From an uncultured Lentisphaerales bacterium (GTDB lineage Bacteria > Verrucomicrobiota > Lentisphaeria > JABSQK01 > UBA12247): 64,000 nucleotides of DNA. The notes beneath the pieces are model-generated. The model was not told the origin of the DNA, searched no databases, and worked only from the letters and a program-made list of their open reading frames with translations. Location of the stretch: positions 64,001 to 128,000 of the forward strand of contig CALSSJ010000005.1 in the NCBI GenBank assembly GCA_943788985.1, given 5' to 3'. A program made the position numbers and the translations under genes. This document shows positions 2 to 64,000 of this stretch, piece by piece (within the stretch, counting starts at the first letter, position 1; the number at the start of each line of letters is the position of its first letter).

Positions 2-3000
2 GAATTAACGATCGACCTCGGCACCGTCACTAACGTTTCCGACAACGATTCCAGCAATGACTACCTGCTAGTGGATTTCGACATTCAGGTACTGAACCAC
101 CCGTCGAACGAGAATGGTGCCCAGCGGTCGAACATTGCGCGCGTGGCCAGCGGCGGATTGCTCAATGAGCAGATTCAGGACATCAAAATCCTTGAGCCAT
201 TGCTGGATGTCACTGGCGAAATTCTATTTCCAAAACCAGCTGCAGATGTGGATGCGGGTGACTTGATTCAGTATCGTGTTGTGATCGAGCATACTGCGGA
301 TAGCAGTTCCGATGCCTTCGATGTCTCCTTTGCAAGCCTATTGAATGCGGCGGGGCCGGAACTGACCGTCGAGACGGTGCAAAGTTTTACGGCGAGTGCG
401 GGCGTCATTATTCTCGCTCCACTCAGCGTCGCCGTCGATGACACGAGCCTTTCGGCATCCTTTGACCTGCCGCTTGGTGAATCTGTAGAAGTGATCTTTG
501 ATGTGTTGGTTTCTGGCGTGATCGCACCCGGGCAGTCGCTGCTGAATGAGGCGACTGCAGATTGGGTTTCCTTGAAAGATAGCCCGCCGCAGTCCCGCGA
601 TGGCAGCGATGGGGTTGGGGGCTTGAACGACTATGTGGCAATGGCAACCCCGACGATCAACGTAGAGCCGCTTATGCAGCCCGTCGTACAGGCTGCGCCA
701 GGCACGTTGCGCATTGGTGAAACCGGCCATTTTTACGTGCGGGTCTGGCTCATTGAGGGGCCCACCGATCCGCTGGTCGTCACGCATCAGTTCACTGACC
801 AGACCTTTGTGCCGGGGACTCTTAGCATCGCTTACGGAACTTCCGGGATTGTCTCAGACTATCAGAATGAGCAAACAAGTGCAAGCAGCGCAACAAACAG
901 CCTCTCCGTATTGTTCGGTCGTGTGGTGAACCCACCCGATAACGACCCGTCCAACGACTACATTGACCTTGAGTACGATGCTGTTCTTGATAATGCTCCC
1001 GGAAACCAGAACGGTGTGGACCGAATCAGTACCATTATTGCGACAGATACCGTAATCCAGCAGCAGGCTGACACCACAGTGCGGGTGCTTGAGCCCGTCC
1101 TGGAACTTGCTGCGATCGTGACCCCAGATCCCGGCACTGTCGATGCCGGTGACGTGATTACCTTCCAGGCCACCATCTCCCATACAGTCGGCAGCGGATC
1201 TGATGCCCACGAGGTCGTGTTAGCCGCGAATGTCGACACCCGCATCGGTCGCATGGCCGTGACGAACATTGTCAATACAATCGTTACAGGCGGAGCCACA
1301 GTCACCGTGCCCACAGACATTGATCTCGATACTTACGGCCTGACTGGGCTCTATGAAATTCCCGTGGGGGGGGCGATTGAAGTGACCTTTCAGGCGGTTG
1401 TCAACGAAAACGTAAAGCCAGCGGATCTGCTGACTTCCTCCAGTGTCGCCACTTGGACGTCCTTGCCTGGCACCGTCACTGGTGAGCGTACCGGTGATGA
1501 CTCTGGCGGCGTGGATGATCATTTCCTCGAGGCGTCGATTGTCACGCCCGTTCGCGATGAATTGAATGCGGAGTTCGCAAGTATCCCGGATGGGATTTCG
1601 ATCGGCGAGGTGGTGACGATCGAAACTTCCGCACTTCCTATTGAGGGGGTAATCCCGAACGGCAGCGTCGAGATCGACATCCCGGACGGCCTCACCTTCC
1701 AGCCTGGAAGTATTACGGTGACTCCTGCATTTGCTGCTCCGATAGTGCCATTTGACGAAGGAACTGTTGGGATCAATGGGAATACGCTCACCATCCCACT
1801 GGGTCCACTCTTCAACCCGGGAGATAACAACGTTGCCAATGATCGGATCACGATCGGCTTGGATGTCGTCGCTGTGAATCTCCCGGCTAACCAGGACGGC
1901 CGCGCCTTGACCGTCGCCGCCCGGACTTTCTTGGACGGAGCCTTGCGCGGCCAGTTGAGCCACGATATTCTGGTGACAGAGCCCGAGCTTGAGGCAGTGA
2001 TTCAGACCATCGGAGCGCCCGATGCCCCGGACGCTGCGGATATAATCGGCTACGAAGTGATCGTCCGCCATGCCACATCGAGTACAGCGGCTGCATTTGA
2101 TGCAGACCTTCTAGTCACAGTGGATCCAACGCTCGGTCGCCTGGTTGCCACTCAAATCACATCCATCACACCCGAGGGCGATGCCACGATTGACACGCAG
2201 CCTGTGATTGGCGGCAGCGGAAGCATTCTGCAGGGATCCTTCGATATCCCATTGGGTGGCCAGATCGCTATTCGCTACGATGCCGTGATCCAGCAGTCCG
2301 TAGCCCGTGCCGACGCCCTGCAGACCGATGCTGCGTTAGATTGGTCGTCGCTCAACAGTGCACCACCCGGCGAAAGAACTGGCGACGACGGGGAAGTCGG
2401 TCTTAACGATTACGTCTCTTCATCGCAGCACATCCTGACAGCTTCAGGCCTGCCGCGTATCGACCACATTAACCCGCCGCTGACCGGACTGGTGGGGCAG
2501 ATTCTGCACTACGAGCTGCGCATTGATGTGATGGAAGGTAACACGCCGGCGGTTGAACTGCGCAACATCTTACCGACCGCACTGGCCTTTCAGCCCGGCA
2601 GTCTTGAAGTTCAAACCGGCTCGCTTGGCCTGCTGACTGGTTATGTGGACGAGGCTCAGCACCTGAGCCTGACAGGACAGGATCTCTTTGTGAATCTCGG
2701 GAATGTGTCCAATAATGCGGACAACAATCCCAACAATGATTTCATTACGGTTGAGTGGGATGTCATTGTTCTGAATAACATCTTCAATGATGACGGCACA
2801 GAGAAAACGAACATCGCCGCTGCGCACGTCGAAACGGTGCTGATCGACGTGGATGAGTTCGAGAATCTGGTGATTATTGAGCCGGATCTTACCCTGACTC
2901 ATACCAAGCTCAGCCCAGCGTCAAACATAAAGCTTAACAACGGCACAGCGGTGACCTATGAGCTAGAGATCAAACACACCGCAGACAGTAAGAACTCTGC

Positions 3001-6000
3001 CTATGATGTGCTCATTGAGGATGTCCTCGACGGTGCCTCCGGTTTCCTGTTGGTGGACAGCATTCTGAGCACCGGCATCAGCCCCGGAGTCGTGACCATC
3101 GTGCCTACAGGAGGAGAAGGAACCGGTACCTTGACTGGTACCTACAACATTCCGCTCGGTGGTTCCGTCACGATCGTGTTCACAGCCACCGTGCAGGATG
3201 GATTTACGCCCGGGCAGTCCTTCGACTCGGTCGCCACGCTTACCTGGAGCAGCTTGCCCGGGACCCCAGTCGGTGAACGTACCGGTGCAGGTGTACCTGA
3301 TCCCAACAACATTGACGACTATTTTGAGATCAGGACTGTATTCAGTGAGGGGGCCGAACCGGAAATCGGAGTCCTCGGCGGCGCGAACACCGGGCTGGCA
3401 CTGTTCGCAGGGCAGCAGACTGTCAGCCTTGCTGACAACACGGACTTTGGGCAGGTTCGGCGCGGTCAAGCGGGGCCTGTTCGATCCTATACCGTCCAGA
3501 ACCTCGGAGAAGGTCGCCTGGATACCACGCTTACCTTGCCAGCTGGCTATATGATCATTGATCCGTTGGCTGCGAACATCGCAGGCGGGGCCTCTGATGT
3601 CTTTACCATCCAGCTCGATTCTTCAGTCGCCGGCCAATTCAACGGCGACATCGTCATTGGCAACAACGATCTTGACGAGTCCCCTTTCCACTTTGCGGTT
3701 GCTGGGCTGGTTGTCGCCCCAAATATCACGGTGATCGGCAACGGCGAATCTATTGAAGATGGCTCGGTGGACTATTCGGTGGACGATCATACCGACTTTG
3801 GTGCGATTCGTCTGCACGAGACTCCGGTAACGCGTGTGTTCACGGTGCGCAACGATGGTGACGATCCACTCGCACTGGGGGCCGTAGGTGTGCCGCCGGG
3901 ATTCGAGCTACTCAGTGACCTGTCTGGCACGCTCCAGCCTGGCGGACTGACCACGTTCTCCGTGCGCGTGGACACGGGGAGCTTGGCCGAATACACCGGT
4001 ACAGTGACTTTCACCCATAGCGACGAGGATGAGAGTCCGTTCGACTTTGTCATTCATGGCCTGGTTTCGCAGCCGGAGATTGCAATCCTCGGTGGAGACA
4101 CTGGGCTGGAGCTGACGAGCGGTCAGCTCACGACTGCTGCTGCCGACGGCACCGATTTGGGGTTGGGCGTGCAGGAAGGTACCCGTGTATCTAGCATATT
4201 TACGATTCGAAACGATGGCGGTACGCCGCTTACGTTGGGCCCGTTCCCGGTTACGGCACCCTTTACCGTCACGACCACTCCGCCCCCATTCCTGGGGGCA
4301 GGTGAGACTGCCGAGTTGACCATTGAGCTAACAACTGATACGCCAGGCACCTATGGCGGCACCGTCACTGTCGCAAACGACGACCCAGACGAGAACCCCT
4401 TTACGTTCAGCGTAGCCGGTATTGTTGAGCCAGCGCCCTTTGTGTTCCTGAGCGTGGTCGGATCGCCAGTGTCTGAAAACCGCGGCACCGCGACCGTAAC
4501 TGCCAGCTTGTCGCAGGCAACTGGTGTAGCGGTAACCATCAACCTCAGCGTCGGCGGAACCGCGACCCCGGCGGACTACCTCATCACGGGCACCACAATC
4601 ATTGTCGAAGCTGGGCAAATCAGCAACAGCGTAGATATCGTGACTACGCGTGACACGGTCACCGATCCGGGTGAAACCGTGATCCTGGCGATCGATTCGA
4701 TGATGAATGGTCGTGAATCCTCACCGCAGCAGGTGACGATCACGATCACAGACGAGTTTCCTGCGGCTGTCACTTTGTATGTGGATCAAGGTGCCACAGG
4801 CAACAACACCGGTACCTCCTGGGCCAACGCATACCTCGAGCTGCAGTCTGCTCTAGACATCGCGCGTGCTGGTGACCAGATCTGGATGGCTGACGGCACA
4901 TACACGCCGGGCGCCACCCGCAGCGATAGCTTTGTGCTCATGGATGAGGTACGCATCCTCGGCGGTTTCGCAGGCAGCGAGAGTTCGCCAGATCAACGCA
5001 TCGCTGGCGCGCCCACCATTCTTTCTGGGGACATCGGCGCTCCGGGAGATTTCTCAGACAACGTCTATCACGTGGTGACAGCAACCGGCCCAGGGGATGA
5101 CTATATCTTGGACAGCCTCACGATTCGAGATGGGAATGCCAATGGTCCTGATTCAGCGGAGCAGATTGGCGGCGGTGTCTACCTTAATAACGCAAACCTC
5201 ACGATCACTAACTCTATCCTGACAGACTCGCGGGCTCTCGTCGACGGTGGTAATGGCTGGTTCGGTGCGCTGTCTCCTGTCCTGCTCAGCGACAGTACCG
5301 TCAGCAATGGTCAGGCCAACCGTGGTGCCGGTATTTTTGTCGCTGCAAATGTTCTGCGGGGCACCAATGTCACGTTCCTTGCCAACGTCGCTATTGGGGA
5401 TGGTGGCGGCCTCTATAACGGCAGTGGCACCGAACTGACCGGCGGTTCTTTCTCCGGCGACCAAGCAGCCAACGGCGGCGGAATTTTCACGGTGAACTCT
5501 GCGGCGACTCCGGATCTTTTGGTGGATGGCGTAAGCTTTTCTGGGACGTCCGTCAGTGGTGGTGGTGGCGGCATTTTCATTGCTGGCGGCACAGTCGTTG
5601 TCGATAACTCTAGCTTCGATGGCTGCTCCGCGGGCAGTGGGGCAGGGATCCAGACTAGTAGCGGTGTGCTGACGTTGATCCGCAGTTCCTTCACCAACGG
5701 CGGCGCGGTATCTGGCGGCGGTGTGCAGCTCTCAGGTGGCACTGCAACTCTCGATTCGATCTCCTTCGACGGCAACACCGCGACCCAAGGTGGCGCCTTG
5801 GCTCTGTCCGGCGGCAGCGCAACCATAAAGAACACGCTCATGACCAACAACACCGCTGCCAACGGTGGCGCGATCTATGCAGGGGCTACGCTGGCGGTCG
5901 ACAACGCAACTTTCGCTTCGAACTCAGCAACAGACAGCGGTGGTGCCCTCTACATTAGCGCCGGTAACACGACTGTCGAAAACAGCATTCTCTGGTCTAA

Positions 6001-9000
6001 TACTGGCACCGCTCCTGCCGCTACACTCGTAAGCGGCAGTCTCTCCTTCGCCTACAGCGCAGTTCAGGGCTCTGGAGGTTCCGGCTCTTGGGCGGGCCCC
6101 GGTACTGACCTCGGCGGAAACATCTCTGCGGACCCGCAGTTCATCGATGCTGCGAACGGGAATTATGAGCTTACTCCCGTGGGCCCGGCCGTCGATGCTG
6201 GTAACAACGCGCTGGTCCCGGCCGCGACACTGACCGACCTAGCGGGTGCTCCGCGCTTTGTCGACGACTTGAACACGCCTGATACCGGTGCTGGAAGCGC
6301 GCCGATTGTAGACATGGGCGCACTTGAAATGCCGCAGTCTCCATTGGCGTCCATTGGTGACTTTGTCTGGTTGGATGAGAATGCCGATGGCATTCAGCAG
6401 CCCGCCGAGTTTGGTGTGAAGGGGATTCCCCTAGATCTACTGAATAGTCTAGGGCAGGTGATCGACACGACCCTCTCAGGGAATGAGGGTGAGTACCTGT
6501 TCGAGGATCTAATCGCTGGGTCATACCAGGTCCGTGTGCAGAACAACGATCGCCCAATCTCCAATCCGGGTGAGGGCAGCGATGATGCTCTGGACAGTGA
6601 CTTTGACCTTGACACCGGTCTGAGCCCGTTCCTCGTCATCACGCCAGGGCTAGAACTGCACTCGGTGGACGTTGGGCTGCGGGTTGGGCCGATTCCGGTC
6701 GCTTGGCGCCTGCCACAAAATGTGAATATCGTTGATAACAGCTTGGACACCTTTGGCCATACACCGCCAGGCTGGGACGCCGGTGCCAACTCCCAGAGTT
6801 ACCTCCGCGGTGATGGCTACGCCCAGACGCTTGTTCAAGAGACCAATACGACCCGTGCCATTGGCCTGGGCCTCCCCAACCATATTCAAAGTCGGTCACA
6901 GATCCAGTATGCTGCCGTGCTCGACAGCACTGGTAAGTTCATCGTCTATGAAGGCACTGCCTTCCGCGGCGAGTTCGGTACGTATGAATCAGGAGATATT
7001 ATTCGTGTGCAAGTCGCTGGCCAGGTTGTTACCTACTGGGTAAACTCCGATCTGCGCTACACGTCCAACGTGCCTGTCGGAGTGCCTGAATTTGGCCTGG
7101 TGGTTGAGGCCGCATTCACATCGCCCAACGCGACACTGTTTGACGTGCGCCGTAGCGCGCCACAGCCGATTATCGACGAATACTTTGTCGAAGACGATGA
7201 TTCCAGTGATCCAAGCTTTTCTAACGGCGATACCCTTACCATCCAATTCAGCGGCAATACCAACAAGCCAGGCGGTGATGGGGTTCAGGACCGAACAGCA
7301 GTCGACCTCATGTTTGCGTTCAGTGAGCCGCTGGGGGCCAGCTACTCCGGGCAGTGGGTAACTGCAGATGCCTTCCGCATTACGATTCTGGACATTACAG
7401 GAGGCAGCATCAATCTCGGCAGCGCCACGGTCACCCCGACTGCAATCGTCCCCATCCTCGACGAGTCAGAAGGCTCCCGCCGTGCCCAGCACGAATCCGA
7501 TGCACTTACGGGAAGTTTTGGTTCGCGCGCCGGCATTCTCATGCCGATCGAGTGGGTTGAGTATGACCCCGAAATCGCGGTGAATGGCACGGATATCACG
7601 CGGACAGATGACACTCGCAAGGGGTTCATCGAAGCACTCTCCGCGCATTGGATGCCGGGCCCGCAGACATTCGTAGAGACCACAGTTCTGCAGATGGACG
7701 AAACACGGGCTCTGGGATTGAACTCAAGTAATTCGCTAGGCTCTGCCCTGAACGACATCGATTACGCTCTGTACCTTCGACCGGCTAACGGTGAGTACCG
7801 CCTGATGAAGCGCAGCACTGTCGAATACATTAGCACCTACTTCCCGGGAGATCGGTTCCGGCTTGAAACGGATGGAGATACCATCTCTCTAATTCAGAAC
7901 GGTGTGTTTCAGCACAGCTTCACCGATGACGTCACCTACCCGCTGTTCGTCGATGGCGTGCTGTTGGAAACCGGGGCGACTATTGCGGACGTCACCATGA
8001 TGCCCGTAGCTCCCAATATCATACAGGTTTTGTGCTCGGATCCGGATGAGTCTTCCCCTGCTGTCGACGTGGGTGATCTCATCACGATTTCCTTCGACGG
8101 CGACACCAATCAGGTCCTCGGCCCCGGCACCCTCAGCAAAGACCAGGTGGACTCGATCCTGACGAGTTCTGCCGTTCTTGGTGCTGACTACACCGGCCAG
8201 TGGCTCGACGGCAAGAACCTACAAATCACAGTGACCAACGCCTCTGGCAGCACGGTGGCCTTGGGCACCGTGTTTACGCCAACCGGTCTTCCGCCTATCA
8301 CCCATGAAGCAGGTTCGCCAGCGTCGCTGGTCTCTGGCGCGCTGATTGGAAATTTCGGCCTGCAGTATCCGCTGGGGATTCCTGTAACTTGGCAGAGCCC
8401 GATCAATGTGGAAGTTGACGGGACCACTCTCGTCAAGACCTCCGCCAACAACAACTTCGATGCCGGAGCCACCGGTACACAGTTGTTTACGCAGGGAAAT
8501 CACTTTGTTTCCGCCACAATCAACGACGCCACGCAGATGCGCGCTATTGGCTTTGGTGATGCCACAGACTCCGGTGCTGCCATCACTGACATTCTTTGGG
8601 GCCTGCGCGTTCGTAGTGATTTCGGGGCGATCGTCGAGAATGGCCTGATCGTCGGTAACATCGGTGCAGTCGCCGATGGCGCGGTGATCAAGGTCGAGAT
8701 TCGCGGCAGTCAGGTGATCTACGTGGTGGATGGTGTGGACCGAGGCGTTTCACCGACCGCGATCGGCGCCGGAGACTTTCCATTGCGTGTTGAATCCTCG
8801 CTGCAGGCTTTTGCCGCCACCTTGATCGATGTCCGTCGCAGCCTAGTCAACGGCTCTCGTACGACATCTTCCGACAGCGCGGTCAGCTTTGCTGGGCAAG
8901 GAGCGGTTGCGAACTCCGCAAATGTTTACTACCTGCCGTTGCAACCAGGCTGGAACCTAGTTTCGTTGCCACTGGAGCCTGCCGTTTCCACAGCAAGCGA

Positions 9001-9349
9001 GTTGTTTGCGAACTCCGCAATCAGCGGCGCTGTCTTCTCTGTGGCCGAGGATGGCAGTTACGTGCCAGCAGAGGACATTGCTGGCGGCGAAGGCTATTGG
9101 GTGTTTGTCGGTGGCGAGAGCCCAGTGGTAGTTACAGTTGATGGCGCACCGTTTGCGCTCTCTAGCTTCGTCGACGGCTGGAATCTTAAAGGCGTGCCTT
9201 ATGAGACAGCGGTGCCGGCATCACTGCAGGTGGATGCGATCCATTCGTTCGAAGCCGGTCGCTATTACGAGCACGCGGCAGAGAGCATTCTCACGATTGG
9301 TCTAGGGTATTGGATCTTTACGCCGGAGGGTGGCCAGGTCGTTTGGTAG
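2..9349 (+). CDS. Giant secreted/surface adhesin-like protein, 5'-truncated by the window. Domains: DUF11/isopeptide fimbrial-type Ig repeats, choice-of-anchor-D-like Ig repeats, Calx-beta, GGA(I/L) beta-helix, SdrD B-like, C-terminal GWNL..GYW domain
   Basis: The frame is open from base 2 (ELTIDLGTVTNVSDNDSSNDYLLVDF...). Contains four (E/S)R(T/D)G..G...(N/D)D(Y/H)-ending repeats, three TD(F/L)G...N.D.DE.PF.F repeats, GGAI/GGGI repeats ending DMGALE, and SIGDFVWLDENADGIQ (SdrD_B). Confidence 0.9.
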   Translation, partial: ELTIDLGTVTNVSDNDSSNDYLLVDFDIQVLNHPSNENGAQRSNIARVASGGLLNEQIQDIKILEPLLDVTGEILFPKPAADVDAGDLIQYRVVIEHTADSSSDAFDVSFASLLNAAGPELTVETVQSFTASAGVIILAPLSVAVDDTSLSASFDLPLGESVEVIFDVLVSGVIAPGQSLLNEATADWVSLKDSPPQSRDGSDGVGGLNDYVAMATPTINVEPLMQPVVQAAPGTLRIGETGHFYVRVWLIEGPTDPLVVTHQFTDQTFVPGTLSIAYGTSGIVSDYQNEQTSASSATNSLSVLFGRVVNPPDNDPSNDYIDLEYDAVLDNAPGNQNGVDRISTIIATDTVIQQQADTTVRVLEPVLELAAIVTPDPGTVDAGDVITFQATISHTVGSGSDAHEVVLAANVDTRIGRMAVTNIVNTIVTGGATVTVPTDIDLDTYGLTGLYEIPVGGAIEVTFQAVVNENVKPADLLTSSSVATWTSLPGTVTGERTGDDSGGVDDHFLEASIVTPVRDELNAEFASIPDGISIGEVVTIETSALPIEGVIPNGSVEIDIPDGLTFQPGSITVTPAFAAPIVPFDEGTVGINGNTLTIPLGPLFNPGDNNVANDRITIGLDVVAVNLPANQDGRALTVAARTFLDGALRGQLSHDILVTEPELEAVIQTIGAPDAPDAADIIGYEVIVRHATSSTAAAFDADLLVTVDPTLGRLVATQITSITPEGDATIDTQPVIGGSGSILQGSFDIPLGGQIAIRYDAVIQQSVARADALQTDAALDWSSLNSAPPGERTGDDGEVGLNDYVSSSQHILTASGLPRIDHINPPLTGLVGQILHYELRIDVMEGNTPAVELRNILPTALAFQPGSLEVQTGSLGLLTGYVDEAQHLSLTGQDLFVNLGNVSNNADNNPNNDFITVEWDVIVLNNIFNDDGTEKTNIAAAHVETVLIDVDEFENLVIIEPDLTLTHTKLSPASNIKLNNGTAVTYELEIKHTADSKNSAYDVLIEDVLDGASGFLLVDSILSTGISPGVVTIVPTGGEGTGTLTGTYNIPLGGSVTIVFTATVQDGFTPGQSFDSVATLTWSSLPGTPVGERTGAGVPDPNNIDDYFEIRTVFSEGAEPEIGVLGGANTGLALFAGQQTVSLADNTDFGQVRRGQAGPVRSYTVQNLGEGRLDTTLTLPAGYMIIDPLAANIAGGASDVFTIQLDSSVAGQFNGDIVIGNNDLDESPFHFAVAGLVVAPNITVIGNGESIEDGSVDYSVDDHTDFGAIRLHETPVTRVFTVRNDGDDPLALGAVGVPPGFELLSDLSGTLQPGGLTTFSVRVDTGSLAEYTGTVTFTHSDEDESPFDFVIHGLVSQPEIAILGGDTGLELTSGQLTTAAADGTDLGLGVQEGTRVSSIFTIRNDGGTPLTLGPFPVTAPFTVTTTPPPFLGAGETAELTIELTTDTPGTYGGTVTVANDDPDENPFTFSVAGIVEPAPFVFLSVVGSPVSENRGTATVTASLSQATGVAVTINLSVGGTATPADYLITGTTIIVEAGQISNSVDIVTTRDTVTDPGETVILAIDSMMNGRESSPQQVTITITDEFPAAVTLYVDQGATGNNTGTSWANAYLELQSALDIARAGDQIWMADGTYTPGATRSDSFVLMDEVRILGGFAGSESSPDQRIAGAPTILSGDIGAPGDFSDNVYHVVTATGPGDDYILDSLTIRDGNANGPDSAEQIGGGVYLNNANLTITNSILTDSRALVDGGNGWFGALSPVLLSDSTVSNGQANRGAGIFVAANVLRGTNVTFLANVAIGDGGGLYNGSGTELTGGSFSGDQAANGGGIFTVNSAATPDLLVDGVSFSGTSVSGGGGGIFIAGGTVVVDNSSFDGCSAGSGAGIQTSSGVLTLIRSSFTNGGAVSGGGVQLSGGTATLDSISFDGNTATQGGALALSGGSATIKNTLMTNNTAANGGAIYAGATLAVDNATFASNSATDSGGALYISAGNTTVENSILWSNTGTAPAATLVSGSLSFAYSAVQGSGGSGSWAGPGTDLGGNISADPQFIDAANGNYELTPVGPAVDAGNNALVPAATLTDLAGAPRFVDDLNTPDTGAGSAPIVDMGALEMPQSPLASIGDFVWLDENADGIQQPAEFGVKGIPLDLLNSLGQVIDTTLSGNEGEYLFEDLIAGSYQVRVQNNDRPISNPGEGSDDALDSDFDLDTGLSPFLVITPGLELHSVDVGLRVGPIPVAWRLPQNVNIVDNSLDTFGHTPPGWDAGANSQSYLRGDGYAQTLVQETNTTRAIGLGLPNHIQSRSQIQYAAVLDSTGKFIVYEGTAFRGEFGTYESGDIIRVQVAGQVVTYWVNSDLRYTSNVPVGVPEFGLVVEAAFTSPNATLFDVRRSAPQPIIDEYFVEDDDSSDPSFSNGDTLTIQFSGNTNKPGGDGVQDRTAVDLMFAFSEPLGASYSGQWVTADAFRITILDITGGSINLGSATVTPTAIVPILDESEGSRRAQHESDALTGSFGSRAGILMPIEWVEYDPEIAVNGTDITRTDDTRKGFIEALSAHWMPGPQTFVETTVLQMDETRALGLNSSNSLGSALNDIDYALYLRPANGEYRLMKRSTVEYISTYFPGDRFRLETDGDTISLIQNGVFQHSFTDDVTYPLFVDGVLLETGATIADVTMMPVAPNIIQVLCSDPDESSPAVDVGDLITISFDGDTNQVLGPGTLSKDQVDSILTSSAVLGADYTGQWLDGKNLQITVTNASGSTVALGTVFTPTGLPPITHEAGSPASLVSGALIGNFGLQYPLGIPVTWQSPINVEVDGTTLVKTSANNNFDAGATGTQLFTQGNHFVSATINDATQMRAIGFGDATDSGAAITDILWGLRVRSDFGAIVENGLIVGNIGAVADGAVIKVEIRGSQVIYVVDGVDRGVSPTAIGAGDFPLRVESSLQAFAATLIDVRRSLVNGSRTTSSDSAVSFAGQGAVANSANVYYLPLQPGWNLVSLPLEPAVSTASELFANSAISGAVFSVAEDGSYVPAEDIAGGEGYWVFVGGESPVVVTVDGAPFALSSFVDGWNLKGVPYETAVPASLQVDAIHSFEAGRYYEHAAESILTIGLGYWIFTPEGGQVVW

Positions 9350-9397
9350 GCTGGCACTCCGCCGAAAAGCAGATAGCTGTGCGAGGCCGCTCACCGA

Positions 9398-10915: not shown

Positions 10916-12070
<1,155 letters not shown>

Positions 12071-12074
<4 letters not shown>

Positions 12075-13511: not shown

Positions 13512-14385
13512 GATTCTGCTGACCGGCGCCAACGGGCAACTCGGCTGGGAGCTGCGCCGCCTCATGACTGCAGACCAGTGCGTGGCATTTACATCCGCGG
13601 AGCTGGACATTACGGACGAGGCTGCGGTCGCCGCCATGGTCGCCGCCGTGGCACCTCGCGTGATTATAAACGCAGCGGCATACACAAACGTGGACGGGGC
13701 GGAGTCTGATGCAGAGGCCGCTAAACGCGTAAATACGAACGGGCCAGAGTATCTCGCCTGTGCCGCCGCGCGCATCAATGCCTTGCTCATTCACGTCTCC
13801 ACAGACTTCGTGTTCAACGGCGATGGCATCAGGCCGCTGCGCCCAGACGATCCGGTCGCCCCTCAGGGCGTATACGCGAGGACCAAACTGGACGGTGAGC
13901 GCCGCGTCCGTGAGTCCGGCGCGCGCTATGTCATTCTGCGTACGGCTTGGGTCTACAGCACACATGGTCGAAACTTCGTCAAGACCATGCTGCGCCTTGG
14001 CGCTGAGCGGGAGCAGCTGCGCGTGGTGGCTGATCAGCTAGGCTCGCCCACCTATGCCGCGGATCTAGCAGCAGCAATCCTGGGCGTTGCGGAGTTCGCA
14101 AATCCGCCATCAGGCGTCTGGCACTGCACCAATTCTGGGCAGGCCAGCTGGTGCGAGTTTGCCCAGGAGATCATACGGCTAGGCGGCAAGCAGCAGCCAC
14201 TAAAGGTGCGCTCGGTCGAGCCAATCTCCAGCTCGGCCTATCCGACTCCAGCAGTTCGTCCCACATATTCTGTCCTGGACTGTGCCAGCCTGGCAGCAGA
14301 TTTTGGGGTAATCATGAGACCATGGCAGGAAGCTCTCGAGGCAGCGTTCTCTTGTCAGGATGAGCCGTTTGCGAACTCGGCATAG
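13504..14385 (+). CDS. rfbD: dTDP-4-dehydrorhamnose reductase
   Basis: LTGANGQLG, NAAAYTNVD, STDFVF, YARTK, DQLGSPT. Confidence 0.97.
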   Translation: MAEILLTGANGQLGWELRRLMTADQCVAFTSAELDITDEAAVAAMVAAVAPRVIINAAAYTNVDGAESDAEAAKRVNTNGPEYLACAAARINALLIHVSTDFVFNGDGIRPLRPDDPVAPQGVYARTKLDGERRVRESGARYVILRTAWVYSTHGRNFVKTMLRLGAEREQLRVVADQLGSPTYAADLAAAILGVAEFANPPSGVWHCTNSGQASWCEFAQEIIRLGGKQQPLKVRSVEPISSSAYPTPAVRPTYSVLDCASLAADFGVIMRPWQEALEAAFSCQDEPFANSA

Positions 14386-19308: not shown

Positions 19309-19479
19309 CCTATCAGTTAGTGGCAGGCGGGCCTCGAGGCTTACCGCCATACTGGCGGGGTCAACTTTTACCAGAATGTCGTCGGGCAGATACTGACGGG
19401 CGTCCCAGGCCATCATGTTGCGGATGGGGTCGTCTGTGAGCGCTTCCAAGCCCCGAAACTGGGCGTTGCGAACTCCGCA
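19309..19479 (-). pseudogene. asnB: Internal fragment of an asparagine synthase (glutamine-hydrolysing) family gene
   Basis: Minus strand reads ...[36 protein letters not shown], matching the Asn[23 protein letters not shown] motif; flanking sequence is unrelated. Confidence 0.8.
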
Positions 19480-50363: not shown

Positions 50364-51298
50364 CCCTGCCGTGGATCCAGGCAATCCGCCCCAAAACTCT
50401 TTGGGCCGGATTTGCGCCTGTGTTGATCGGTGCCGCTCTCGCTTTTGCGGAGTCCGCATTAAACTGGCTGTTTGCCGCCCTGTGCTTGTTATTTGCGTTG
50501 GCGCTGCAGATTGGCTGCAACCTTGCCAATGACTACTTCGACGCCAAGAAAGGTGCGGACACCCCAGACCGCCTTGGGCCCGTGCGGGTCACCCAATCTG
50601 GGCTGATTTCCCCCGCTGCAGTGCGCCGCGCCGCGGGCCTCTGTTTCGGCATTGCCAGCCTGATCGCGCTGGCCATGATCCAGCGTGGCGGGCTGCCGGT
50701 GGTGATTATTCTCGTGACCGCGGTCATCACCGCCATCTGCTACACAGGCGGCCCCTTCCCGCTGGGGTACAACGGCCTGGGAGACGTAGCCGCCTTCATC
50801 TACTTCGGCCCCGTAGCCGTAGGGGGGACGCATTACATCATGACCGACTCCTGGAGTACAGATGCGATCATTGCAGGCTTTGGCCCCGGCTTTCTCTCTG
50901 TCGCGATCCTTACCGTCAACAATCTGCGCGACCTGGAGACAGACCGCGCGGCCCACAAGCGTACCCTCATCGTCATGTGGGGGCGAACCTACGGCCGCAT
51001 CCATTACACGGTGGCACTGATCGCAGCGGCGCTGGTTCCCGTGGTGCTGATTCTGCGAAGCGGCAGCCACCACGCGGTGGCGATCGCCTCACTCGCCTGC
51101 GTTCTAGCTATCGTTCCGCTCGTGCGCGCTGTCTGGCGTGAAACCGGTCGCCCACTAAACCAAACGCTTGGTGCCACCGCCCGGCTGCTGCTCGTTTACA
51201 GCATCCTTTTTGCCGTTGGCTGGAACTTACCCCGAGCTACTTCTTCAGCCACCAATTCTCCGCCAGAGTTCTTGCAACCCGCGAATCCGGGGAGCTAA
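50360..51298 (+). CDS. menA: 1,4-dihydroxy-2-naphthoate polyprenyltransferase
   Basis: RPKTL, NLANDYFD..KG.D, YTGGP, NNLRD..TD..A.KRTL. Confidence 0.93.
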
Positions 51299-52340: not shown

Positions 52341-53659
52341 GGCGCGACCGTCTTCAAAGGCCGCAGCTTGATGTACTCATCTCCGTCGTAGAGGATCGTC
52401 ACCGACTTCATCGGGCTGAATTCGATCGAGCCATTCGCTGCCTTACTCACAAGAACCCCCTGAATCACCTCGCCATTTGCCTTATGAAGCTCATGGTCGG
52501 GGATCCAAAGCTTGGTGAGCCTCAGGGTGCCAAGCTGGGTCAGTTCACCGCGAAAAACCAGCACTTTCTTGCGAATCGGCGCGTAGCCAGCCTTGCGCAC
52601 TTCCACCAGATGCGGCCCCTCGGCCAGGTCGGCAAAATCGGTGATCTTGGAAACCAGACGCGTTCCCTGTTGCCGCGTGGTCCCCAGATTCTTTGCGCCC
52701 ACGTAAATCTGGCAGCCCGGCGGCTCAGTGGCCAGGGAGAATCCGCCCAGTACCGATTCCATATTTGTGATGATCTTCGTGGTCTTGCCAGGCCCGATGC
52801 TTGCGTTCTGGTGCACGTCGTCAAACCCGGTTTTAGTCAGCCGGAGAATCAGAATTCCGGGCGCGAGGTTCTTGCGCTCGAAAGGCGTGGTGCCCAGCAA
52901 CTCATCGTTGCCATACACATCCACCCCGGTTGGCGTAGTTTCCACGCGTAGTGCACCCGGCTTGGCCTGAAATGCTGGCAGTGGGACTCGCACCTCTTGA
53001 TCCTTGAGGAGCGTCACCGAATTTGAGACATTTTCGTGTCCGGCCAGGCGACCCTGTACCTCATGGCGACCCGCCATCAGATCCGTCAATACCAGCGGGC
53101 TATTGCCCCGGTACTGGCCGTTGATGTAGATTGACGCGCCCTGGGGGGTGGTGTCCACCCGCAACTTCCCCAGCAGGCTTTCCAGCAGGCAATGCAAACC
53201 GACCGGTCGTTCGTCGGGCACTTGCAGCGTAATCGTCCGGCTTTGGTGTCCCGCAAGGCTGAACGTGACCTCCTTAGTGCCGAGTGGAAGTGGCACCACG
53301 CAGGGAGTGGTTCCCAGCGGCTTGCCAGCCATCAAGATGCTCGCGCCAGGCGGTGAGGACGTAAGCCGTACCGGTGGTCGAAACGGCTCCAGTCTTACCT
53401 CTACCTGATACGGATCAATGGCACCCGGTTGAATTCGCTCGAAATGGGGATGATGCCCCTTCTTGCGCACCTCGACCATGTGCCCCGCCACATCGATCTG
53501 CAGCACAAGCGGCGTCAAGCCTACCTGCTTCCCGTTCACCGTCACCTCAGCCGACTCTGGCTGGCTTGAGATCTCCAATGTGCGCACTTCTGCGCTCCAA
53601 AGTGCGAGCGCCAACAGTGCCCCCAGGGCAAGGTGCCAATTTTGCGGAGTTCGCATCAC
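52337..53659 (-). CDS. PEGA-domain protein (about 5 repeats)
   Basis: Repeated S/T.P.GA.I..NG...G.TP. Confidence 0.9.
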   Translation of the reverse strand: MMRTPQNWHLALGALLALALWSAEVRTLEISSQPESAEVTVNGKQVGLTPLVLQIDVAGHMVEVRKKGHHPHFERIQPGAIDPYQVEVRLEPFRPPVRLTSSPPGASILMAGKPLGTTPCVVPLPLGTKEVTFSLAGHQSRTITLQVPDERPVGLHCLLESLLGKLRVDTTPQGASIYINGQYRGNSPLVLTDLMAGRHEVQGRLAGHENVSNSVTLLKDQEVRVPLPAFQAKPGALRVETTPTGVDVYGNDELLGTTPFERKNLAPGILILRLTKTGFDDVHQNASIGPGKTTKIITNMESVLGGFSLATEPPGCQIYVGAKNLGTTRQQGTRLVSKITDFADLAEGPHLVEVRKAGYAPIRKKVLVFRGELTQLGTLRLTKLWIPDHELHKANGEVIQGVLVSKAANGSIEFSPMKSVTILYDGDEYIKLRPLKTVAP

Positions 53660-55502: not shown

Positions 55503-57077
55503 TTACCCTGCTTGCGCGATCCCTGCCTCCAAACGTGCCAGTACGCGCTCGCGTCCCAGCAGTGCCGCAGTCTCGTAAATGCCCGCGCCTACGCTTTGCC
55601 CGGTGAGCGCGACACGAATCGGTTGATTCAGCTTGCCCTGCTTCATTTCCGCCGCTTCCGTCACACCGTGAATTGCGGACTCAATGCCCGCAACGTCGAA
55701 GGCCTCGAGTCCGGAGAAAGCAGCGGCTAAAGCCCGCAGGCGATCTGCCACTCCGTCCTTTGCCAGGTGCTTCCGCACGGCCTTCTCGTCATAAGTCAGC
55801 GTCTCCACGAAGAACGGAGCCCAGCCTGCCACATCCGTAAACAGCTTTGTCCGCGTTTGCAGCAACAGTGCCACTTGGTCAAAAAACTCCCGCTCCCCGC
55901 CAGCCCAATCCTCATCCGCAGCCGCCGCCCAGGCAGCATTTGCGAACTCCGCAAACGGCAGGTCCGCCAGATAGCGACCGTTGAAATCGAGCAGCTTGCG
56001 AAAGTCCATCTGTGCTGGCGAGCTGATCACCCGGTCCAGTGCAAACGCTGCGATCAGCTCCGGCCGCGGCATATACTCGACATCGTGGCCAGGAGACCAG
56101 CCCAGGAGTGTCAGGTAGTTGAACAGTGCATCCGGCTGGTAGCCCTTTGCCCGGAAGTCTCCGACGTAAGCATCGCCATCGCGCTTGCTATATGGCCGTC
56201 CCTGCTGATTCACAATCATCGGCAAATGGGCAAATTGCGGCAATTTCGCACCCAAGCTTGCGTACAAGAACACATGCCGAAACGTATTCTCCACATGGTC
56301 GTCACCCCGAATCACGTGGCTGATTTCCATGGCGATGTCGTCGCACACATTCGCCAGGTGAAACACCGGGTTTCCATCGCTGCGGACGATCACCTGGTCA
56401 CGCATGCTGTCCAGGGGCTTGCTCAAATGCCCTTTCACTAAGTCCGTGAACTGCACTTCCCGGCGTTGAAAAACCATGCGGACGGCACCTGCCACTTCGT
56501 GCGCCACTGTCCCGTCCAGGATCCCGCCTACCTCATCATCCAGCCCCAGCAGCAGCGTGCCCGCTGCATTGTATAGCTGCAAGCCCTTGAAGCCCGCCAG
56601 CGTCCCTTGCTGCGGCGCTGGCTTGCCCTTGCGTGTCCGCAGGGAGTAGCTCACGCCCGTCTGGTCGACGCAAACCGGCTCGTCCGCATGCAATTCCAGC
56701 TCGACGCTCTCCGTATCCACGACGAATGGCAATCCAGCTGTGTTCCAGGGAAACCGTAGCAACGTTGCCTCGCCGCCATCCCCTTTGGCAAAACGATACG
56801 CATGCCCGCCTTCCAACAGCGACTCTGCCGCCGTCAAGTGGGCCTCCCGCTGGGCGCTCTGGTAGACCGGCTCGCCATCAAAGGTGAGGCCCATCCACTC
56901 CATGACCCCAAACAGCGCCTGCACCGCCTCGTCTGTCGACCGCTCCCGGTCTGTGTCCTCTATTCGTAACAGAAACTCGCCGCCGCAACTCCGGGCTGCA
57001 AGCCAATTAAAAATCGCCGTGCGAATATTGCCTATGTGAATATTTCCAGTCGGCGAAGGGGCAAATCGAACGCGCAT
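55503..57077 (-). CDS. gltX: Glutamate--tRNA ligase with an atypical insertion
   Basis: RFAPSPTG..HIGN, LRIEDTD, HVIRGDDH, YSKR, P.RVALTG; anticodon domain present. Confidence 0.93.
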   Translation of the reverse strand: MRVRFAPSPTGNIHIGNIRTAIFNWLAARSCGGEFLLRIEDTDRERSTDEAVQALFGVMEWMGLTFDGEPVYQSAQREAHLTAAESLLEGGHAYRFAKGDGGEATLLRFPWNTAGLPFVVDTESVELELHADEPVCVDQTGVSYSLRTRKGKPAPQQGTLAGFKGLQLYNAAGTLLLGLDDEVGGILDGTVAHEVAGAVRMVFQRREVQFTDLVKGHLSKPLDSMRDQVIVRSDGNPVFHLANVCDDIAMEISHVIRGDDHVENTFRHVFLYASLGAKLPQFAHLPMIVNQQGRPYSKRDGDAYVGDFRAKGYQPDALFNYLTLLGWSPGHDVEYMPRPELIAAFALDRVISSPAQMDFRKLLDFNGRYLADLPFAEFANAAWAAAADEDWAGGEREFFDQVALLLQTRTKLFTDVAGWAPFFVETLTYDEKAVRKHLAKDGVADRLRALAAAFSGLEAFDVAGIESAIHGVTEAAEMKQGKLNQPIRVALTGQSVGAGIYETAALLGRERVLARLEAGIAQAG

Positions 57078-58394: not shown

Positions 58395-59637
58395 CGGCGC
58401 GGCGGTGCTTGCCCCATGGCGCGAATCTGCGCCCCTTTTCGATAAGCTCACAGCCAAGGAGCGGGTGTTCTTGGCGGAAGCTGGCGAGCGTCTCGCCTTC
58501 ACCCATCAGGAACGCCGACAGCTCATCGAGATGGCGCGGGACCTGCAGCATTGGGGCGCAGGGTCCCTCGGGGATTATTGGCCCAAAGAAAAGCCCAACG
58601 CCCGCAAAATCCTGCTCCGGGATCTCCGGCTGCGCATTGGCCAGTTGCGGGCAGGTGAGAAGGACTTCAGCGATCCCCCACTGCTCAAACCCGTAAAGCT
58701 GAGCAAAGAGCTGGCAACCACCGAGCGCAAGATCCATGGCATGTGTCCAGTGGCGTCTCCGGAGACCGTTTGTTGCAACCTGCGGACTATCGACACGGTT
58801 GAGAACTGCGGATTTGGCTGTAGCTATTGCACTATTCAGACTTTCTACGGCAAGTCCGTCACCTTCGACGCGAACCTGCCAGAGAAGCTGCGGGCCTTGA
58901 GCGAGACCCTCGACCCCACGCGAAACTATCACTACGGGACCGGCCAGTCTTCGGATTCGCTGATGTGGGGTAATCAACACGGTAATCTTGACGACCTCTG
59001 CTCGTTTGCCCGCGAGAACCCAAACATCCTGCTCGAGTTCAAAACCAAGAGCAAGAACGTCTCCCATTTCCTTAAGTCGGAAGACCTGCCCCGTAACCTG
59101 GTCTGCAGCTGGTCACTGAATCCTCAGGCGGTGATCGACAGCGAGGAACATTTCACTGCGTCACTCGACGAGCGGCTCCGTGCTGCCCGCGCCGTGGCTG
59201 ACCGCGGAATCGGCGTCTCCTTTCACTTTCACCCCATGATCGTCTACGATGGCTGGGAGAGCGATTACCCGGCTTTGGTCGAGCGCGTACTTGCGGAGTT
59301 CGCACCCCATGAGATTCTATTCATATCGATGGGCTCTGTGACCTTCATCCGCCCCGTGATCCGCGCTATCCGCGAGCGCGAGCGCCCCACCAAGATGCTG
59401 CAGATGGACCTGGTCCCCACGGCCAAGGGGAAACTCAGTTATCCCCCAGACCTCAAAAAGCAGCAGTTTCAGACGTTGTATCGCAGTTTTGCACCTTGGC
59501 ACGACCAGGTCTTTTTCTACCTGTGTATGGAGCAGGCGGAGTTTTGGGAGTCCACATTCGGCGCATACTATCCGACCAACGAGGACTTCGAGCACGCGCT
59601 CATGTCCGCCTCTCGCAGTAAACTTGGGCTTTCTTGA
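58387..59637 (+). CDS. Spore photoproduct lyase-family radical SAM protein
   Basis: CPVAS..CCN, C.F.C.YC (CGFGCSYC), GTGQSSDSL, LEFKTKS, WSLNP, HFHPM, FYLCME. Confidence 0.85.
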   Translation: MSDGAAVLAPWRESAPLFDKLTAKERVFLAEAGERLAFTHQERRQLIEMARDLQHWGAGSLGDYWPKEKPNARKILLRDLRLRIGQLRAGEKDFSDPPLLKPVKLSKELATTERKIHGMCPVASPETVCCNLRTIDTVENCGFGCSYCTIQTFYGKSVTFDANLPEKLRALSETLDPTRNYHYGTGQSSDSLMWGNQHGNLDDLCSFARENPNILLEFKTKSKNVSHFLKSEDLPRNLVCSWSLNPQAVIDSEEHFTASLDERLRAARAVADRGIGVSFHFHPMIVYDGWESDYPALVERVLAEFAPHEILFISMGSVTFIRPVIRAIRERERPTKMLQMDLVPTAKGKLSYPPDLKKQQFQTLYRSFAPWHDQVFFYLCMEQAEFWESTFGAYYPTNEDFEHALMSASRSKLGLS

Positions 59638-61081: not shown

Positions 61082-61623
61082 TGTACGATGATGAATTGCG
61101 CGCCCGCGTCGAGAACCGTCTCGACCTTGTCGGCCTCAAACTGCTGCAGAACGTTTACAGCGCCAACTGGGGCGTCGGGCTCAGCGACCGCACCAGCAGC
61201 GACGAGCGCCTCGAGTGGTCCAACAACTTTGGCCTCGAACGTGGCGCCATGGCCCTGCTCCTTATCATCTGGGTGAAGCTGATCCTGCCCAAAAGACTCG
61301 CCCAAGAGGAGCGCCAGCCCGAGGACGGCACCGTGGCTTCCCTCTTTCCGCAGATCGAAACCGTTCCCCAGCCTCGCGTGAGTGTTAATCGTGACCAGAT
61401 TGTTGCGGAGTTCGCAGATCTGCTCGGCGGCATCACCCTCGTCGGCAAGTACCTCGCCCAGTTGTCGCGGGGCCCCAAGCTCATTCGCTGCCACGGGGGC
61501 CTGGTCGAGGAAGGCCCGCTGCTTTCCCTCGTGGTCGACGAAACCAAGCTTGGCGACGAACTCCGCCGCGATGTCCTGCTCAGTGTGCTCAAGCGCGAAC
61601 ACAGCGCTGGGTACCCGCGCTGA
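60985..61623 (+). CDS. MksE/JetB-like (KITE tandem winged-helix) subunit
   Basis: AGGAG RBS + GTG; RL..VGLKLL.N.Y, SNNFGL....ALL..IW..LILPKR, EGPLL.L motifs. Confidence 0.6.
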   Translation: MELDEQPQDQLQEICSLLIANGYIPKDQFQQLMYDDELRARVENRLDLVGLKLLQNVYSANWGVGLSDRTSSDERLEWSNNFGLERGAMALLLIIWVKLILPKRLAQEERQPEDGTVASLFPQIETVPQPRVSVNRDQIVAEFADLLGGITLVGKYLAQLSRGPKLIRCHGGLVEEGPLLSLVVDETKLGDELRRDVLLSVLKREHSAGYPR

Positions 61624-61631
61624 CTTAAGTC

Positions 61632-62129: not shown

Positions 62130-62135
62130 TTCGCT

Positions 62136-64000
62136 ATGCCAGACGACCCCAAAAATCCCTACCAAGGCCCCGCAGGTGGCTGGGGAGCACTTGCCGCCAG
62201 CGCCGAGATTATCACCCGCGGAAAAAAGCCATCGCGCGTGGCCTCGGCCGCGTTGCTTCGGGTGGTAAACCAGAAGGACGGCTTCGACTGCCCCGGCTGC
62301 GCCTGGCCTGATCCTCACGACCACCGATCTGCCTTCGAGTTCTGCGAGAACGGCGTCAAAGCCGTCGTTTGGGAATCCACGTCTAAGCGCGTCCGACGCC
62401 GCCTTCTTTGCCAAGCACACCGTTTGCGAACTCCGCAAAAAAGAGCGACCACTGGCTGGAGTCGCAAGGGCGCCTGGTCAATCCGCTCGCCTACGACCCC
62501 AAGACCGACCACTTTGCTCCCATCCCCTGGTCCGAAGCCTTCGAGACGATCGGCGCGACCCTGCGGTCGCTGGACGATCCCAACCAGGCGGCCTTCTACA
62601 CCTCCGGCCCCGCGCCAGCAACGAAGCGGCGTACCTCTATCAGCTCTTCGTCCGCATGTTCGGCACCAACAACCTGCCGGGACTGTTCGAACCTGTGCCA
62701 CGAAGTCCAGCGGCGTCGGGCTCAACCCAGACCATCGGAATTGGGAAGGGGACCGTCTCGCTCGCGGACTTCGATGAGGCCGATGCCATCTTTGTCATCG
62801 GCCAAAATCCAGGCACAAACCACCCTCGCATGCTCAGCGCCCTCCAGGGAGCGGCCAGACGCGGGGCCCAAATCGTGGCCATCAACCCACTCGTCGAGCG
62901 CGGTCTCGAGAAGTTCCTGCATCCGCAGGAGGCCGGGGCCATGCTGTGCAACAAGGCCACCCCGATCGCCACTGCCTATTTGCAGCCCACCATCGGCGGC
63001 GATCTTGCCCTGCTCACCGGTATCTGCAAGCACATTCTTGCCGCCGAAGACGCAGCACCCGGGACCATTCTGGACCATGCCTTTATCGATGAGCACACCA
63101 ACCAGTTTTGCGGAGTTTGCAGAATCCGTACGTGCAGCAGACTGGGAGACCATCGAGACCCAGTCCGGATTGCGGAGTTCGCAAATCCAGGAGGTGGCGG
63201 ACATTTACTTGCAGGCCAAGTCTGTGATCTGCTGCTGGGCCATGGGCCTGACGCAGCACACCCACGGCGTCGCCACCATCCAATTCGTGGTGAACCTGCT
63301 GCTCATGCGTGGCAACATTGGCCGTCCAGGAGCCGGCGCCTGCCCCGTGCGCGGGCACAGCAACGTGCAGGGCAATCGGACCGTGGGCATCAACCACCAC
63401 CTGCCTCCTGCCTTTGGCGAGAAAATGGAGAAGCTCTACGACTTCAAAGCCCCCACGACGCATGGCTACGACGTAGTCGAGGCCATCAAAGCCATGAATG
63501 ATGGCCGCGTACGCGTGTTTATGGCACTGGGCGGTAACCTGGTGCCGGCCTCCCCGGATACCGAACTTACTGCTGCCGCGCTTGAGAAAACTGAGCTGGC
63601 GATTCATGTCGCGACCAAGCTAAACCGGACGCATTTGGTGCACGGGAAGCAGGCGCTCATTCTGCCCTGCCTCGGGCGGACCGAAATCGATCAGCAGGTC
63701 GCCGGTCCACAGGTCGTGACTGTTGAAGATTCGATGGGTGACGTCCATGCGTCCGAGGGCAGAAACGCCCCCGCTGGGGAGCAGTTGCTCTCAGAAACCG
63801 CGATCGTTGCGAACATCGCAGCTGCCACGCTCCCGCCGGGGAAACCCGATTGGCGCGGCTTCGTGGCGGACTACGCCACGATTCGCGACCACATCGAGAA
63901 AGTCCTGCCTATCTTCAAGGATTACAACGCCCGTATCGCCGAGCCTGGCGGCTTCAGTCTCAAGAATACTGCTCGCGACCGTGAGTGGATCACCGGCACG
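62136..64000 (+). CDS. FdhF/YdeP-family molybdopterin oxidoreductase, multiply frameshifted, running off the window
   Basis: AGGWGAL, NQKDGFDCPGCAWPD, FEFCENG; then FGTNNLP, GQNPGTNHPRML; then WAMGLTQH, PVRGHSNVQG, LPCLGRTE in successive frames. Confidence 0.88.

Follow-up and report, generated by a model that had tools for sequence, protein, structure and literature searches.

A hyper-abundant, quasi-palindromic DNA word in a Lentisphaerota-type genome and in assemblies of neighbouring lineages

Hyper-abundant genomic words are rare, and the well-studied cases, namely the uptake signal sequence (USS), the DNA uptake sequence (DUS), and the highly iterated palindrome HIP1, have each been informative on DNA exchange or chromosome biology. 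DUS and USS, from Neisseriaceae and Pasteurellaceae, occur at something like one copy per 1-3 kb in both orientations, lie mostly within genes, in tolerant frames and at a cost to the protein, and combine a strict core with a softer extension and with dialects that differ between lineages. Here we analyse a 13-base word, TGCGGAGTYCGCA, in a stretch of 64 kb (hereafter the window: positions 64,001 to 128,000 of contig CALSSJ010000005.1) from an uncultured Lentisphaerales bacterium. In this Lentisphaerota-type genome the word, TTGCGGAGTYCGCAA, is maintained at a density of about one copy per 3.2 kb. Irrespective of GC content, many assemblies labelled Lentisphaerae, Victivallales, Kiritimatiellota, or Verrucomicrobiota contain it too. 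It is a lineage-wide DNA word, present far above expectation at the price of altered amino acids, and adds to the hyper-abundant words a new case, longer and cleanly defined, from a poorly studied phylum.

HIP1 (GCGATCGC) of cyanobacteria appears to be its closest analogue. HIP1 is palindromic, as is the C form of the present word; both words are hyper-abundant, placed within genes in any frame, and conserved at about the depth of a phylum, and no peptide, RNA, or expression role has been found for HIP1. The function of HIP1 is debated between chromosome structure (PMC5861425) and DNA exchange (PMC13756078): Xu et al. argue for selection on HIP1 (PMC5861425), and a 2026 paper (PMC13756078) and a 2024 preprint (10.1101/2024.09.10.611283) argue that it aids transformation. 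The present word has several features of HIP-type words, namely over-representation (in the window), frame independence without a peptide or RNA role, and deep-lineage conservation (in the listed loci of other genomes described below). It is not HIP1 proper, since it differs from the cyanobacterial octamer and its host is of the Planctomycetes-Verrucomicrobia-Chlamydiae (PVC) type. HIP1 has 8 bp instead of 13-15 bp and belongs to cyanobacteria instead of a PVC phylum; the present word forms a dyad of odd length around a fixed central G:C and has an asymmetric form that dominates in this genome; and HIP1 has cognate methylases, whereas none is known for this word.

With DUS and USS the word shares its density, both orientations, tolerant genic frames, a core with an extension, and dialects; like them, it is over-represented in both orientations in largely coding DNA. 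DUS and USS differ from it in being non-palindromic and in having a ComP receptor and an uptake bias demonstrated by experiment. Paired copies that act as terminators, as in DUS and USS, were not seen in this word, of which one copy lies near a gene end and lacks a T-run. Papers on DUS and USS include PMC1939737 and PMC4906244. The initial annotation of the window could match the word to no described motif, and we likewise found no description in the searchable literature: the 11-base cores returned only unrelated primers (subscription journals and REBASE lay outside the search), the open literature held nothing relevant on Lentisphaerae with an uptake sequence, a palindrome, HIP, or competence, and a term search in PMC5217627 returned no mention of these taxa.

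A DNA-level signal within genes

An exact-match search for TGCGGAGTYCGCA gave 20 copies in the window, 11 on the + strand and 9 on the − strand, with T at the Y position in 14 (T form) and C in 6 (C form). Dinucleotide-preserving shuffles (n=100) held a mean of 0.02 copies and a maximum of one. Markov models of orders 1-5, trained on the window, predicted 0.003-0.05 copies of either form against the 14 and 6 observed, and even order 6 predicted no more than 0.5 and 0.16. When synonymous codons were shuffled within genes (500 runs), 2.13 copies were left on average and 4 at most, with a floor of 2 because two copies sit outside the gene models used for shuffling. At each length from 8 to 15 bases, the most over-represented k-mer of the window is the word or one of its sub-words. 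These tests were made on the 64-kb window plus samples of other genomes. The match is also exact, with 20 perfect copies against four that deviate at one position, and all 13 positions are sharply conserved. A T precedes 17 of the 20 copies and an A follows 14 of them, and beyond these two bases the 20 window copies show no flanking conservation. The mean gap between copies is 3.2 kb, the spacing fits uniform random placement (largest gap 10.4 kb, P=0.48), and neither clustering nor pairing of the window copies is significant (two gaps below 300 bp, P=0.53). The initial annotation had given the same 20 coordinates and strands, the same four one-mismatch copies (14370, 27962, 34120, and 63109), and the same flank counts, and had claimed a vast over-representation without strand bias; all of this is borne out, and the enrichment also holds under the codon-preserving shuffle that it had named as a check.

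The copies in the window, with the one-mismatch copies and those of a second 13-mer, are as follows.

1567..1579, + strand, T form: giant adhesin-like open reading frame (ORF), sense, coding AEFA
8908..8920, − strand, T form: giant adhesin-like ORF, antisense, coding ANSA
9007..9019, − strand, T form: giant adhesin-like ORF, antisense, coding ANSA
11360..11372, + strand, C form: M20 peptidase gene, coding AESA
14088..14100, + strand, T form: rmlD, coding AEFA
15057..15069, + strand, T form: GT2 glycosyltransferase gene, coding LRSSQ
19467..19479, − strand, T form: between convergent genes, directly after a stop codon
25687..25699, − strand, C form: hypothetical 368-aa gene, coding ADSA
28000..28012, + strand, C form: imuA-like gene, antisense, coding ADSA
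29460..29472, + strand, T form: TPR gene, coding CGVR
29741..29753, − strand, C form: TPR gene, antisense, coding ADSA
35348..35360, − strand, T form: ankyrin-repeat gene, antisense, coding RTPQ
40006..40018, − strand, C form: sulfatase gene, antisense, coding ADSA
50446..50458, + strand, C form: UbiA/menA-type prenyltransferase gene, coding AESA
53643..53655, + strand, T form: codons 2-6 of a PEGA-domain gene (if its GTG start is right), antisense, coding RTPQ
55941..55953, − strand, T form: gltX, sense, coding AEFA in a family-variable stretch
59292..59304, + strand, T form: spore-photoproduct-lyase-like gene, coding AEFA
61404..61416, + strand, T form: overlapping ORFs without a family match, the + ORF 60985-61623 being slightly favoured by codon-position GC
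62425..62437, − strand, T form: FdhF/YdeP-family gene, antisense, coding CELR in the frame that matches database protein P0122
63171..63183, + strand, T form: FdhF/YdeP-family gene, coding LRSSQ
14370..14382, − strand: one-mismatch copy, position 4
27962..27974, + strand: one-mismatch copy, position 10, with the exact copy at 28000 lying 38 bp away
34120..34132, + strand: one-mismatch copy, central base T
63109..63121, + strand: one-mismatch copy, position 10, YdeP-family gene, coding FAEFAE
3571..3583, − strand: second 13-mer, inner ATGTT
21976..21988, − strand: second 13-mer, inner ATGTT
48696..48708, − strand: second 13-mer, inner ATGTT
63808..63820, − strand: second 13-mer, inner ATGTT, coding ANIA in place of the family's A[RG][LI]A

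The C form, TTGCGGA-S-TCCGCAA, is a perfect inverted repeat about a central G:C (a 6-1-6 dyad, or 7-1-7 with the flanks), and in the T form one arm pair is broken and six of seven are kept. The word had been introduced as a quasi-palindrome; it is no simple palindrome, as the T form, the commonest one in the window, is asymmetric. The asymmetry has a fixed sense: the window contains 14 GGAGTT and no GGACTT, and among the copies in the listed loci of other genomes that the search pattern could not have selected there are six GGAGTT and one GGACTT. Symmetric deamination or a strictly symmetric reader predicts equal numbers of the two, and this is not what is observed. More generally, the window has 27 sites of the type TGCG-N5-CGCA, whose inner pentamer is GAGTT in 14, GAGTC in 6, ATGTT in 4, and something else in 3. 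The ATGTT sites are the second exact 13-mer, TGCGAACATCGCA as written on the + strand, whose outer arms are those of the main word and whose four copies lie in unrelated genes, the frame being of the Ala-x-x-Ala kind in all four (ANIA or AMFA). Neither the 317 kb of PVC loci nor the 808 kb of other loci analysed below contain it, and it may represent a minor variant of the main signal that is particular to this genome.

Eighteen of the 20 copies lie inside confident and functionally unrelated genes, nine in sense and nine in antisense. This is one fewer than the 19 initially annotated: the copy at 19467 lies past a stop codon, and the one at 61404 falls in overlapping ORFs that match no family. 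The use of all six codon phases was correctly noted at the outset, as was its implication, now joined by the synonymous shuffle, that neither a protein motif nor codon bias is the cause. The classes are AEFA/AESA (6 copies), ANSA/ADSA (6), LRSSQ (2), RTPQ (2), CGVR (1), and CELR (1), the frame of the last, at 62425, being set by comparison with P0122. Twelve of the 18 genic copies use the mild Ala-x-x-Ala frames. The word marks the window proteome (20,033 residues), where AEFA is found 5 times against 0.45 expected, ANSA 4 against 0.44, ADSA 5 against 0.77, RTPQ 3 against 0.15, and LRSSQ 2 against 0.02. An Rfam search gave no match at any copy, its sole match in the window being a tRNA at 25073-25143. 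The word is a DNA-level signal, read neither as RNA nor as protein.

The cost to the proteins can be read from family alignments. The FdhF/YdeP-family gene carries peptides from two exact copies, one one-mismatch copy, and one copy of the second 13-mer, and when its product is aligned with 119 homologs, each of the four stretches aligns without gaps and is found in a single one of the 120 sequences, at places where the consensus differs: HTVCELRKKS replaces HTVAELAAQS, SGLRSSQIQE replaces SGL[ST]R.Q, TSFAEFAESV replaces TGFEALAADL, and AIVANIAAAT replaces AIVA[RG][LI]AAAT. The copy in gltX lies in a variable stretch (PFAEFANAAW versus, e.g., PFDEFLSSAR) where 6 of 120 homologs have AEFA at that column; the overall footprint in GltX is weak, with 16 AEFA against 8 ADFA, 14 AELA, and 9 AEVA among 120 homologs. 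In both families the alignments show that the word arose by substitutions at tolerant places, against the family preference, and not by insertion. A similar replacement of the consensus by a motif-coded peptide is found in AroA (locus L019, 9664-10965) of MAG179, a metagenome-assembled genome (MAG) of 36% GC. There, 12 of 120 homologs share AESA at one alignment column, against a consensus of AEA[MI], and this column is possibly one motif site common to several lineages.

Recurrence in other assemblies

The 15-mer was sought in 185,579 species genomes, which gave at least 112 stretches, treated as 111 loci. In 596 Gb, chance alone should produce about 2,000 matches, so that isolated ones mean little; the control was the presence of further exact 13-mers beside the seed match, a count from which one overlapping locus was dropped. 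Among the matches listed, grouped by record title, 28 loci come from 15 assemblies with Lentisphaer- or Victivall- names, 3 from one Kiritimatiellota-labelled MAG, 8 from five MAGs labelled Verrucomicrobiota or Opitutae, 4 from Planctomycetota, and 68 from unrelated taxa. The Lentisphaerota-labelled loci hold 8 extra copies in 190 kb, the Kiritimatiellota-labelled ones 6 in 60 kb, and the Verrucomicrobiota-labelled ones 5 in 67 kb; together, these three enriched groups have 19 extra copies in 317 kb, against none in the 808 kb of the 68 unrelated loci. None was found in the 41 kb of the four Planctomycetota loci either. The variants at one mismatch follow the same pattern, with 16, 9, and 2 in the Lentisphaerota, Kiritimatiellota, and Verrucomicrobiota groups and 2 in the 68 unrelated loci. 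The word is hence not specific to this genome, and among the matches listed the extra copies occur in PVC-labelled assemblies only. The lineage breadth given here is a lower bound, and the taxon labels of MAGs are loose: e.g., the best named matches of the AroA of MAG179, at 55-58% identity, are from Lentisphaeria, Planctomycetota, Omnitrophica, and Verrucomicrobiia, which places it no more finely than PVC.

The motif-bearing genomes range in GC content from 36% to about 70%, and MAG179, at the lower end, has 8 copies in 26 kb where its composition predicts 1e-4. In 38 listed loci there are 57 exact copies, all in stop-free frames of at least 150 codons and with all six phase classes occupied, frames being taken here as the longest open frame, which is error-prone in GC-rich DNA. 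T-form copies in these genomes are sense in 10 cases and antisense in 8 (n=18). The balance of the two forms shifts between genomes: the C form makes up 39 of the 57 copies in the listed loci, against a T form in 14 of 20 in the window. No orthologs of window genes were found among the 111 listed loci. Copies are locally bunched in places. Locus L006 has one exact and four one-mismatch copies within 900 bp (4768-5668), and locus L079 has three exact copies within 190 bp (863-1049), all of them in the gene for a U32 peptidase. The bunches elsewhere share no gene; they fall in genes for U32 peptidase, pectate-lyase-like, GH123-like, and DUF748 proteins and for AroA.

Candidate functions of the word

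The initial annotation had offered three functions, namely a site for a dimeric organiser, an uptake or self-recognition tag, and a palindrome driven by methylation or recombination, and all three are candidates here as well. Several classes of known sites resemble the word in part. The sites of chromosome organisers, such as parS, matS, the Noc-binding sites (NBS), the SlmA-binding sites (SBS), and the KorB operator, are dyads of 12-16 bp read by dimers; matS and the KorB operator have 13 bp and a central variable base. They are present in few to about a hundred copies, often regionally. The present word has no sequence in common with them, has 20 randomly placed copies in 64 kb, and shows neither low copy number nor regional confinement within the window. 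Chi and the polar sequences KOPS/AIMS are, like it, frequent intragenic words read as DNA, of 5-8 bases, non-palindromic, and strongly skewed with the direction of replication; such polarity is lacking in the window, where the T form by itself is found 8 times on the + and 6 times on the − strand. Repetitive extragenic palindromes mobilised by RAYT proteins (REP/RAYT) or miniature inverted-repeat transposable elements (MITEs) are extragenic, longer units with conserved flanks; 18 of the 20 copies are genic and their flanks are unrelated. The consistent orientation and known family of a structured RNA are likewise absent, with as many sense as antisense copies.

We tentatively favour the reading that the word may be a self-DNA tag of the HIP1/DUS class with a role in DNA exchange. 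At uptake, or in subsequent recombination or restriction-protection, the duplex word would be recognised by a conserved sequence-specific protein, and word-bearing DNA would be preferentially taken up or retained. New copies would be made by point mutation, would spread by homologous replacement, and would be held in balance by their cost to proteins. A receptor of two-fold symmetry is suggested by the near-dyad, whereas the T form, asymmetric in a fixed sense, points to a stricter reading of one half together with the central base. We group the word with USS, DUS, and HIP1, and not with low-copy organiser sites, because of its density, its exactness (20 to 4), its frame-tolerant intragenic placement, and its dialect shift; its T/A flank extension also resembles theirs more than those of organiser sites. 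A broader version, in which Lentisphaerota and neighbouring PVC bacteria would share, at class-to-phylum depth, an uptake or self-recognition sequence in the form of a 15-base quasi-palindrome read by a conserved receptor, we regard as somewhat unlikely.

A number of observations weigh against a tag for DNA exchange. We know of no uptake sequence that is palindromic, and our literature search found no reports of competence, uptake, or binding for Lentisphaerota. No motif-specific receptor, methyltransferase, or competence gene was identified in the window, whose sole pilin-like gene (31115-31939) encodes an ordinary DUF1559 pseudopilin with no link to the motif. The density near seeds in the listed loci is below that of the window, at roughly 0.4-1 extra copy per 10 kb. 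Nothing in the 64 kb separates drive from selection. Finally, Xu et al. take the conservation and periodicity of HIP1 sites to point to chromosome structure and not to exchange (PMC5861425).

That last view of HIP1 offers a precedent for another explanation, which we consider rather unlikely here: that the copies form an array bound by a conserved dimeric protein, which would structure, segregate, or protect the chromosome; the array would correspond, at a very high copy number, to parS, matS, Noc, or SlmA sites, or would play the role that Xu et al. proposed for HIP1 (PMC5861425). The perfect 7-1-7 repeat of the C form, the six of seven arm pairs of the T form, and the even, random placement along the window would suit such a protein, and the constancy of the word in genomes from 36% to 70% GC fits a conserved core protein. 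However, the density of the word is one to two orders of magnitude above that of known specific organiser sites and seems to vary several-fold among genomes in the listed loci, no candidate binder is present in the window, and the T form is asymmetric, with 20 unbiased GGAGTT to 1 GGACTT when window and listed loci are taken together. The same asymmetry (14 to 0 in the window, 6 to 1 unbiased in the listed loci) speaks against the notion that a sequence-specific methyltransferase, a repair bias, or biased gene conversion generates the word passively and that the word itself has no function, since symmetric deamination would produce equal T forms. This notion draws on the GASTC at the centre of the C form, a subset of the common methylation site GANTC, and on the Y position, where C and T differ by the transition expected at a methylated cytosine. 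In addition, two methylases recognise HIP1 (PMC13756078). Yet the T form, which dominates the window, lacks GASTC, no methyltransferase gene lies within the window, all 13 positions are sharply conserved with 20 perfect to four imperfect copies, and a specificity of 13-15 bases is long for repair bias; we think it improbable.

The asymmetry would be explained if the word acted as a small hairpin in single-stranded DNA, the target of a strand-specific enzyme such as an HUH/Y1 nuclease or one acting on a replication or transformation intermediate, because the wobble of the T form would then arise on one strand only. Positions 5 and 9 of the recurrent pentamers GAGTC, GAGTT, and ATGTT are G-C, G-T, and A-T, and stay pairable around an xGT loop; this pattern fits a small hairpin and equally fits related half-sites, and the covariation rests on three sequence types. 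Folding predicts DNA hairpins with z-scores of -3 to -5, but they are weak (-4.1 to -5.3 kcal/mol), with stems of just 5-6 bp; the program leaves the G-T pair of the T form open, and the two strands fold about equally (-4.2 and -4.1). As the T form also lacks strand polarity in the window, and the hairpin elements of the REP/RAYT type are longer and extragenic where 18 of the 20 copies here are genic, we give this explanation very little weight. Least credible of all is that there is no DNA signal, i.e., that the copies reflect a protein motif, codon bias, remnants of mobile elements, or an assembly artefact. The prevalence of Ala-x-x-Ala frames (12 of 18 genic copies) and local indel errors or decay in two window genes could be cited for it. 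A protein motif or codon bias is ruled out by the synonymous shuffle, which removes the motif, and by the six phase classes, used in both orientations. An RNA element is ruled out by the even split of sense and antisense and the lack of an Rfam match at the copies. Insertion of a mobile element is ruled out by the unrelated flanks and the gap-free alignment of the motif peptides with their homologs, which in the YdeP-family and GltX means that those copies were not inserted; and the word is present in dozens of independent assemblies.

If the broader version of the tag holds, these largely uncultured bacteria would be naturally transformable and would mark their own DNA as Neisseria does; such a system would then have arisen independently once more, and for the first time in the PVC superphylum. 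Beyond this, the word allows selection and drive to be tested independently as causes of such words, and provides a sequence handle for finding the protein that recognises it, by phylogenetic profiling or pull-down. In practice, its addition to donor DNA might make cultured Lentisphaerota genetically tractable. The word is also a strong taxonomic signature for binning, and it brings about amino-acid changes specific to a lineage, by which studies of protein evolution could be misled.

Host and genetic setting of the window

The host is a PVC-type bacterium of the Lentisphaerota type, and the window is a piece of its ordinary chromosomal DNA. The closest named relatives of its GltX, at 55-59% identity, come from MAGs of Lentisphaerae, Victivallales, Kiritimatiellia, and Verrucomicrobiota, and the closest relative of all is at 69%. 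Its genes include rmlC/rmlD, glycosyltransferases, speD/speE, an imuA/imuB-like pair, ThiF, ThiI, a GH95 enzyme, three sulfatases, a subtilase, obg, a UbiA-type prenyltransferase, gltX, the DUF1559 pseudopilin, and DUF1573 domains. Two genes have broken frames. The FdhF/YdeP-family oxidoreductase gene (62136-64000) matches P0122 at 100% in 11 segments, separated by ten small insertions (14 bases in total, between 62220 and 63100) that mostly lengthen short homopolymer runs; one of them touches the copy at 62425 and another lies 9 bases before the one-mismatch copy at 63109. The rmlA gene (NTP_transferase, 12071-12960) lies in two overlapping frames, ORF 12071-12445 covering profile positions 1-118 and ORF 12280-12960 positions 142-243, which indicates a frameshift. 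These breaks look like local sequencing errors or very recent decay. They have no bearing on the motif, of which the window has 20 exact copies and which independent assemblies contain as well.

The cumulative GC skew climbs to about 44-48 kb and then drops, and the orientation of the motif does not change there; the turn may be only a change of gene strand. The window opens with an open-ended ORF of more than 3,100 codons (2-9349) with SdrD_B, DUF1573, and HYDIN/VesB-like Ig domains, a giant surface protein that contains three motif copies. At 26397-28413, on the minus strand, an imuB-like homolog of Y-family polymerases (IMS domain, weak matches to DNA polymerase IV) adjoins a weak ImuA match, and no dnaE2 was seen beside the pair within the gene models. 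Between 36934 and 44685, a GH95 glycoside hydrolase gene is followed by the three sulfatase genes, in what looks like a cluster for the degradation of sulfated glycans, of a kind typical of Lentisphaerota and Planctomycetota.

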